NCBI GenBank assembly: GCA_019058445.1
Contig: JAHPZA010000003.1
Span: forward strand, 484,919-548,918
Direction of reading: 5' to 3'
Source of the DNA: Promethearchaeota archaeon
GTDB lineage: Archaea > Asgardarchaeota > Lokiarchaeia > Sigyniarchaeales > SOKP01
Length of the DNA stretch: 64,000 bases
Within the stretch, counting starts at the first letter, position 1. Each line of letters begins with the position of its first letter. Of this stretch, positions 9,183 through 10,040 are shown one piece after another. Made by a program: the position numbers and the translations under genes. The notes beneath the pieces are model-generated. The model ran no database searches, was not told where the DNA came from, and saw only the letters and a program-made list of their open reading frames with translations.

Positions 9183-9407
9183 ATGTGTAATAAATGCGAA
9201 TGTGATGGAATAGCTCAATGTTCTATAGTTGGATATCAACCTTTCGGAGCATGTTGTACACTTTGTGCCCATTGGGACGAAGAACATACCTGTCCGAATT
9301 ATGAAATGGTTGCGAAAAATGTTACAGTTTCGCAGGAAAACCTATTTAAAGTTGCGCCAAAGGAAAAAGCCAAAGCTATGACCGTTTCAGTTGAAAAATT
9401 TCCATAA
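9183..9407 (+). CDS. Cys-rich mini-protein, paralog 1
   Basis: Start reassigned to ATG 9183 (MCNKCEC...) by alignment with paralogs 2 and 3. Contains 8 Cys plus His. Confidence 0.8.
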   Translation: MCNKCECDGIAQCSIVGYQPFGACCTLCAHWDEEHTCPNYEMVAKNVTVSQENLFKVAPKEKAKAMTVSVEKFP

Positions 9408-9463
9408 AAAATATGAACATAAATTATAAAAGTATTTCACTAACGGAAATTGAGTGATAAAAA

Positions 9464-9712
9464 GTGTGTAATTATTGCGAATGTGATAACATGGATAAAT
9501 GTTCTATAGTCGGGAATATTCCCTTAGGATTTTGTTGTCCTAAGTGTAAATTTTATTCAGGAGCGCATACATGCTTAAATTCGAAGATTAGAACTCAGGA
9601 GAAAATCAAAGCGATAACAAAAAAAATCGATGCTCTTCGTGAAGCTTTTGGTAAAAACGGCAATTCTTCCGAGGAGGAGGAAGAAATCGAAGAGCTTGAA
9701 AAGTATCCCTAA
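9464..9712 (+). CDS. Cys-rich mini-protein, paralog 2
   Basis: GTG start; MCNYCECDNMDKCSIVGNIPLGFCCPKC...HTC. Confidence 0.8.
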   Translation: MCNYCECDNMDKCSIVGNIPLGFCCPKCKFYSGAHTCLNSKIRTQEKIKAITKKIDALREAFGKNGNSSEEEEEIEELEKYP

Positions 9713-9752
9713 ATATTTCCTTAAAATTTTTATAATAAAGGAGGTTTAATAA

Positions 9753-10040
9753 ATGTGTAATAATTGTAATTGCGAAAATTATGACAAATGTTCGATTGTT
9801 GGATATATGCCCATAGGGTTTTGTTGTTCTAAATGCTATCTCTATGATGAGCAACACACTTGTTTAAATACCAAGACCAAACGAAAATCTCCATTAGAGC
9901 AGGAAGATGAAGAAAAACGAGATGAATTAAAACCGATTAGTACTACAATAGAAAATGGAGTAGTAAAGGTGGTAGTTGGTAAGAAAGATAAAAAGAAGGA
10001 GATCTATATTGACCTTCAAAAACATTTAGATTCGCAATAG
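9753..10040 (+). CDS. Cys-rich mini-protein, paralog 3
   Basis: GGAGGT Shine-Dalgarno-like site upstream; MCNNCNCENYDKCSIVGYMPIGFCCSKC...HTC. Confidence 0.85.
   Translation: MCNNCNCENYDKCSIVGYMPIGFCCSKCYLYDEQHTCLNTKTKRKSPLEQEDEEKRDELKPISTTIENGVVKVVVGKKDKKKEIYIDLQKHLDSQ

Follow-up and report, generated by a model that had tools for sequence, protein, structure and literature searches.

A lineage-restricted family of eight-cysteine microproteins encoded beside an hdr-flx operon in Asgard archaea

Three tandem genes upstream of an hdr-flx operon, in a 64,000 nt stretch of a Promethearchaeota archaeon genome (the whole of which is referred to here as the window), encode small proteins belonging to a family defined by an N-terminal module containing eight cysteines. 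The genes of this family adjoin hdrC in the great majority of loci, co-occur with an HdrB orthologue across genomes and, in one set of sequences, have become fused into an FrhB-family protein. Synteny, co-occurrence and fusion together indicate that the proteins are probably partners of the redox enzyme encoded next to them. The fuller reading, in which they would be small metal-binding accessory partners of an Hdr-Flx-FrhB complex with tails that dock to its subunits, is one to which we give about an even chance.

The first gene (9183-9407, forward strand) encodes a 74 aa protein with a module of the GYQPFGACC type and a tail ending in VEKFP. An alternative GTG start at 9132 would lengthen this product to 91 aa; the ATG at 9183 is the likely start, as almost all homologues begin with M-C-N. 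The second (9464-9712, forward strand) has a GTG start preceded by a Shine-Dalgarno-like GAGTGAT, and its 82 aa product combines a module of the GNIPLGFCCPKC type with an acidic, helix-prone tail ending in LEKYP. The third (9753-10040, forward strand), which follows an AGGAGGT Shine-Dalgarno site, encodes a 95 aa protein from an ATG and represents the class termed type C below. A purine-rich, ribosome-binding-like site is found ahead of each gene. The three-way alignment has M1, C2, N3, C5, C7, C13, S14, I15, V16, G17, P20, G22, C24, C25, C28, H35, T36, C37 and N39 as invariant positions, and the module extends over 37 residues with the pattern C-x2-C-x-C-x5-C-S-I-V-G-x6-C-C-x2-C-x8-C. Beyond it the tails are not alignable, save for the EKFP and EKYP ends of paralogues 1 and 2. 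Both the three adjacent 74-95 aa reading frames sharing a cysteine motif and the EK[F/Y]P ends of the first two had been described in the initial annotation of this region, and are confirmed by the ORF map and alignment. Only these three copies of the module are present in the genome (4.6 Mb, 92.6% complete), each matching the profile with an E value of around 1e-26; given these scores, and the 163 homologous clusters in public data, the likeness between them is far beyond chance.

Two TATA-like boxes can be read from the sequence ahead of the first gene, TTTAAATA (9087-9094, forward strand) and TATAAAAT (9109-9116), and may act as its promoter. A perfect palindrome, TTGTGA-N8-TCACAA (9130-9149), lies 33 nt before the ATG at 9183 and probably serves the array as an operator. 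Nine exact TGTGA-N8-TCACA sites occur in 788 kb of related loci, and eight of them sit 28-54 nt ahead of the gene that opens a multi-copy array, even in genus g2, where the genes do not adjoin hdr; none was found at the single-copy type C loci in the same 788 kb. The related loci bearing the palindrome are L034, L036, L049, L051, L068, L070, L088 and L096. The window's own genome contains two such sites, the other of which falls within a dihydroorotase-like CDS and is probably due to chance. At the opposite end of the array, 16 nt past the stop codon of the third gene, a perfect 8 bp inverted repeat, AAAGATTC-N6-GAATCTTT (10056-10077, forward strand), possibly forms a terminator-like hairpin, and TATA-like boxes are found at around 10263-10286, ahead of hdrC. 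Taken together, these elements suggest that hdrC can be transcribed separately from the triplet. Two genes encoding zinc-ribbon proteins (7013-7951, forward strand; 8254-8592, reverse strand), with matches to Zn_Ribbon_1 and DZR, immediately precede the triplet, and the closest relative (L034) likewise has both in the vicinity of its triplet.

The neighbouring operon, encoded throughout on the forward strand, starts with an hdrC-like gene for a 4Fe-4S dicluster protein (10323-10820) and an hdrB-like gene specifying two CCG domains (10824-11699). These are followed by a split hdrA (11737-13044 and 13051-14739), a first mvhD (14696-15502), a fused hdrA (15517-18534) and, at 18462-23056, a second mvhD, genes for two Fe-S proteins and an NAD/FAD FlxA-like subunit, and that for an FrhB/FdhB-family subunit (21800-23056). 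The operon codes for dozens of Fe-S sites. The triplet lies upstream and in the same orientation, as had been stated, though the intervening gap, counted to the hdrC ATG at 10323, is 282 nt and not 283. In the first MvhD protein, an FlpD domain (residues 23-143) precedes a C-terminal extension of around 120 aa that has a weak ArsR-type HTH_5 match (E 5e-4) and is kept at full length in all related operons; one possibility is that this extension bears a cluster and either binds DNA or acts as an adaptor.

The family had not been recognised when the region was first annotated, and this too stands. The three window proteins gave nothing above noise in Pfam or NCBIfam, a profile search of PDB sequences returned no match at E <= 10 and the ESM Atlas contained nothing beyond the family's own clusters. 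Amongst 102 diverse members there was no match to any metal-binding Pfam family, the only Pfam matches at E <= 0.01 being one GerE tail and one chance match, and no account of the family was found in the literature searched. A word-indexed search retrieved the 163 clusters (at 90% identity), which encode proteins of 73-134 aa, all annotated as 'hypothetical' and, where the source is named, derived from MAGs labelled as Promethearchaeota, Lokiarchaeota or other Asgard archaea. An exhaustive HMM scan of 1.84 billion representatives yielded 73 clusters (at 50% identity). All were 44-110 aa in length and, where named, again from Asgard MAGs, bar two, one being a genuine FrhB fusion and the other a spurious, unrelated filamin-repeat protein (P0140). 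The module was detected in 110 of 400 genomes of the phylum, including 103 of the 134 belonging to the window's own family, with only six weak or partial cases elsewhere in the phylum; all 80 loci from a collection of species-representative genomes came from uncultured MAGs.

A weak match in genome G359 proved to be the AN1-type zinc finger of a membrane protease-like protein, which is unrelated. In five loci (L098, on contig DATKTW010000087.1, L073, L074, L107 and L137), a typical type C gene and an hdrC of around 80% identity occur in MAGs labelled as a Nanopelagicaceae bacterium or as Odin-, Hod-, Thor- or Hermodarchaeota; these labels probably reflect mis-binning or inconsistent naming, not a wider range of the family. 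Even when a broader profile was used, two closed genomes from sister family f3 yielded no eight-cysteine gene. The hdr-flx operon in each of these is flanked by an unrelated Cys-rich ORF of 81-86 aa (L154, 15352-15609; L155, 2134-2409; both on the reverse strand), the two being 51% identical to one another, with no Pfam match and an hhalign probability of 0.07% against the eight-cysteine family. One f3 Cys-rich ORF had a weak match in the window's own genome, which was rejected as lying antisense inside a larger ORF.

Three classes of tail recur: type C, tails ending in [LVI]-[EQ]-[KRN]-[FY]-P, and other short tails. Type C proteins, 84-96 aa long, constitute the universal orthologue and have the tail P-I-S-T-x-I-E-x-G-x-L-K-V-V-...-I-P-I-x-I-D-L-x-K-x-L. 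The [LVI]-[EQ]-[KRN]-[FY]-P ending is found on two classes of protein, those resembling paralogue 1 (GYQPFGACC) and those resembling paralogue 2 (GNIPLGFCCPKC), and this conserved C-terminal pentapeptide is common to 57 distinct members. An A-B-C triplet is also present in another genus (L051), whilst the largest genus has retained the type C copy alone, which implies an old triplication followed by losses. AlphaFold2 models were of low confidence, with a pLDDT of 54.8 for the 95 aa paralogue (115-sequence alignment) and 58.2 for a 45 aa module (102-sequence alignment); the type C tail is tentatively predicted to form three beta strands. Part of this tail, I-E-N-G-V-L-K-V-V...I-x-I-D-L, resembles the C-terminal beta9/IxI region of small heat shock proteins (PF00011), in which x-N-G-V-L-x-[IV] is followed by I-x-I, and hhalign aligned the stretch with the genome's own three such proteins over 19 columns. 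However, the probability was 1%, and there is neither a PF00011 match nor an alpha-crystallin domain, such that we treat this as a resemblance only.

The cysteines themselves are strongly conserved, with all eight kept in 311 of 330 distinct full-length members and only the eighth shifted in a further 15; Cys2 is at the extreme N terminus of nearly every protein. The motif had originally been described as eight cysteines and a histidine: the former hold across the family, but His35 is present in just 210 of 342 members (61%) and hence is not a ligand. Three degenerate tandem copies (P0143, L107 and L111) retain C5, C7, C13 and C25 whilst having lost C2, C24, C28 and C37. This exact loss of four cysteines suggests a pair of distinct but interleaved sites with four ligands apiece, of which one can be dispensed with. 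Degenerate paralogues with only four cysteines, at 2667-2924 in L107 and 2011-2268 in L111, as well as in P0143 and P0154, still have the type C tail. Besides the cysteines, N3, S14, I15, G17, P20, G22, F23 and Y31 are conserved across the family and the spacing is invariant. The module has a mean net charge of -2.5 and the whole proteins a pI of around 5.5-5.8, an acidity that would be closer to that of small redox proteins or docking modules than to that of DNA-binding zinc clusters.

Linkage to hdr was assessed using 20 kb regions from 20 genomes of 11 genera together with 80 further loci, the microprotein genes being located by HMM and hdrC by tblastn, which gave 90 distinct loci, 82 of them informative. 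The genes adjoin hdrC in 76 of these 82. In 42 loci they are co-oriented with and directly upstream of hdrC, at a median distance of 195 nt; in 33 they are divergent from it, with a median of 578 nt between starts; and a single locus has another linked arrangement. No hdrC was found in 14 loci, in eight of which the flanks are too short to judge. Across the 90 distinct loci, the copy nearest hdrC is always of type C. Linkage to hdr extends to distant members from three other families of the class (L061, L062 and L063), and in L061 the eight-cysteine genes come after an FrhB-like gene. Hence the search of Asgard genomes that had been proposed for the motif lends strong support to the suggested hdr link, along with co-occurrence and domain fusion, although co-orientation with hdrC, correct for the window, fails as a general rule, as does cotranscription, 33 of the 76 linked loci being divergent. 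Since the linkage persists when the genes are inverted, it is independent of cotranscription, and the microprotein genes are likely to have their own promoters.

In genus g2 and genome G169 the genes lie apart from hdr. In g2, where the hdr orthologue is on a separate contig, they neighbour genes encoding an FMN reductase, a CxxCxxCC protein that is putatively Zn/Fe-chelating and an MFS transporter. The G169 gene converges on one for a class-I pyridine-nucleotide disulfide oxidoreductase, near that for a thioredoxin-like DUF255 protein. Over the 134 genomes of the window's own family, the microprotein and the HdrB orthologue are both present in 94 and both missing from 26, several of the latter being 94-99% complete; nine have the microprotein only and five HdrB only, such discordant genomes mostly being fragmented MAGs or containing divergent copies. 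The Fisher p-value for this co-occurrence is inflated, as related genomes are not independent, but the pattern is still clear. The orthologous hdr operons of sister family f3, including those of the two closed genomes, have an HdrB orthologue and no eight-cysteine gene, and therefore the microprotein is not an essential subunit of the enzyme. No FrhB-like gene was found in the examined stretch of the hdr-flx operon in the f3 closed genomes. In genome G128 the FrhB-like subunit is present and the eight-cysteine gene is absent.

The connection with the FrhB family is direct in one set of proteins. Cluster P0189 comprises three member sequences, on contigs of around 18 kb, of a 386 aa FrhB/FdhB-family protein with a ferredoxin N terminus followed by FrhB_N and FrhB_C domains. 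Relative to the FrhB-like protein of the window, it carries approximately 50 additional residues, inserted between its N and C domains, and these include the module, N-C-D-N-C-Y-C-E-E-M-E-K-C-S-I-V-D-N-K-P-V-G-F-C-C-E-N-C...C. A second fusion cluster, P0211, which is 80% identical to P0189, is found on a 46 kb contig from a MAG labelled as Helarchaeota, and all eight cysteines are retained in both; P0189, too, derives from Helarchaeota-labelled MAGs. No match to P0189 was found in the 400 genomes of the phylum (E <= 1e-60) or in the metagenome scan. These insertions imply that the module can work within a larger subunit, of a type that the window's own operon also encodes.

On the basis of these observations, we interpret the eight-cysteine proteins as paralogues of a lineage-specific microprotein family in which the 37-residue module would bind metal through two interleaved four-cysteine sites, roughly {C5, C7, C13, C25} and {C2, C24, C28, C37}. 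The candidate metals are zinc, rubredoxin-like iron or small Fe-S centres. As accessory partners of the adjacent Hdr-Flx-FrhB flavin-based electron-bifurcating complex, the proteins would place this acidic metal module on the enzyme, and the variable tails, whether the beta-rich type C tail or the [LVI]-[EQ]-[KRN]-[FY]-P ends, would dock it to different subunits. There it might have a structural or adaptor role, relay electrons or participate in assembly.

The cysteines might alternatively be redox-active thiols, making these proteins thiol/disulfide or persulfide carriers reduced by HdrB, and so a protein stand-in for CoM-S-S-CoB in the manner of DsrC. Either the Cys2 arm (M-C-N-x-C-x-C) or the CC pair would then enter the HdrB active site, an idea with which the location of Cys2 at the extreme N terminus is consistent. 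The window's genome, at 92.6% completeness, lacks both DsrC (PF04358) and ComA (PF02679), the literature that records Flx-Hdr in Asgard archaea names no substrate for it, and type C is invariably the copy adjoining the hdrC-hdrB end of the operon; the position of the G169 gene, facing a disulfide oxidoreductase, could be read in the same way. However, eight conserved cysteines divisible into two groups of four are the signature of metal sites and not of a single redox-active dithiol, and favour two such sites over a simple dithiol substrate. The tails, unlike the arm of DsrC, contain no cysteines, the module is also inserted within an FrhB-family enzyme, and the f3 genomes have an HdrB orthologue with no eight-cysteine gene. 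We consequently find the HdrB-substrate role somewhat unlikely. Slightly more doubtful is the joint proposal that these proteins serve HdrB as its physiological redox partner in those Asgard archaea without CoM/CoB and DsrC, and that their thiol/disulfide or metal-thiolate centre is the high-potential acceptor of Flx-Hdr bifurcation; were it true, having one to three paralogues would let the enzyme be coupled to different processes downstream.

Regulation, as opposed to participation in the complex, was also considered: the proteins could be small zinc-finger or redox-sensing transcription factors controlling the hdr operon, or autoregulators of their own array. Regulatory functions are found amongst archaeal zinc-finger microproteins, for example Brz, the 33 divergent loci share an intergenic region between the two sets of genes, and the palindrome ahead of the array has no other noncoding occurrence in the genome. 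In one member, P0085, the tail has a match to the latter half of a GerE/LuxR helix-turn-helix (E 2.5e-4), but this is a single ENA sequence from a 590 nt contig and possibly an assembly chimera. Against such a function, the proteins have an acidic module and contain no complete DNA-binding domain, the palindrome is missing from single-copy type C loci, and between one and three paralogues with unrelated tails would be an unusual arrangement for a regulator. The FrhB insertion, moreover, is hard to square with DNA binding. We judge a regulatory role unlikely.

More doubtful again is a role in supplying metal during assembly of the complex, as a metallochaperone, Fe-S scaffold or metallothionein-like buffer. 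Metallothioneins typically contain CxC, CC and CxxC motifs like those of the module, the operon has dozens of Fe-S sites to fill and the g2 genes neighbour a putative Zn/Fe-chelating protein; yet the fixed spacing and the conservation of N3, S14, I15, G17, P20, G22 and the aromatic residues point to a folded domain, the tails are specific and conserved, and sister lineages have the same operon with no eight-cysteine gene. That the genes encode RiPP precursor peptides, which their small size, tandem arrangement, cysteine content and variable C termini might bring to mind, was held to be less likely from the outset and now seems most improbable, as the conserved part is the Cys-rich N terminus and not a leader peptide, the genes are linked to a redox enzyme, and the annotated neighbours are zinc-ribbon and hdr-flx genes, with no radical-SAM, YcaO, lanthipeptide or protease/exporter genes amongst them.

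The eight-cysteine family is best viewed as one of small, Cys-rich and putatively metal-binding partners of redox enzymes; the chance that they include the missing partner of HdrB is real but unproven. Hdr-Flx-type complexes are central to the syntrophic, hydrogen- or formate-transferring metabolism proposed for Asgard archaea, the closest prokaryotic relatives of eukaryotes, and these organisms lack the heterodisulfide of methanogens as a substrate for the HdrB active site. A microprotein that stays beside the operon through rearrangements, and that elsewhere is fused into one of its subunit types, is a concrete candidate partner; being under 100 aa, it would be easy to express and cheap to test. 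The family also adds a new small, putatively metal-binding domain to those already catalogued, and exemplifies the biology hidden in microproteins labelled 'hypothetical'.

Comparison with known Cys-rich proteins allowed several affiliations to be set aside. The cysteine spacing differs from the two CxxCxxCxxxCP motifs of 2x[4Fe-4S] ferredoxins, and there is no Fer4 match in Pfam; nor is there one to the CCG domain of HdrB (PF02754), which has the motif C-Xn-C-C-G-Xm-C-X2-C, the CC pair of the module being followed by x2-C in place of G. The TRASH and YHS domains (PF08394, PF04945) have the motif C-x2-C-x19-22-C-x3-C, a spacing unlike that of the module, and had no match at E <= 10 in the window proteins or E <= 0.01 in the 102 members. 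Metallothioneins, as a class, have variable spacing, few aromatic residues and no fixed hydrophobic core, in contrast to the invariant spacing and conserved F23 and Y31 observed here.

Closer parallels exist at the level of organisation. DsrC (PF04358), the proposed disulfide substrate of DsrK and FlxABCD-HdrABC, is likewise small and genetically tied to an Hdr-type enzyme, and in an organism without CoM/CoB an eight-cysteine protein could in principle deliver cysteines to HdrB similarly. However, DsrC has two cysteines on a C-terminal arm, as opposed to eight in a compact N-terminal module, and neither the window proteins nor the 102 members, with their Cys-free tails, match the DsrC/TusE profile (PF04358). 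Desulforedoxin and rubredoxin are, as is the module, tiny and acidic, with CxxC and adjacent CC ligand motifs; the 37 residues could hold tetrathiolate sites, although two are postulated here and each of those proteins has one, and the same sets of sequences gave no profile match to PF06397 or PF00301. The CPxCG microproteins of Haloferax and Halobacterium (HVO_2753, Brz) are archaeal proteins of fewer than 100 aa whose cysteine motifs probably bind zinc, and some of which modulate enzymes or transcription. The eight-cysteine family differs in lacking both the CPxCG motif and homology to these proteins, in belonging to the Asgard lineage and in its fixed link to one operon. MvhD (PF02662), a [2Fe-2S] adaptor, is a further example of a small metal-cluster protein, found by itself as well as joined to subunits of Hdr complexes, and has genes in this same operon; its sequence is unrelated and its cysteine pattern different, and it is widespread, whereas the eight-cysteine proteins are nearly confined to one archaeal family.
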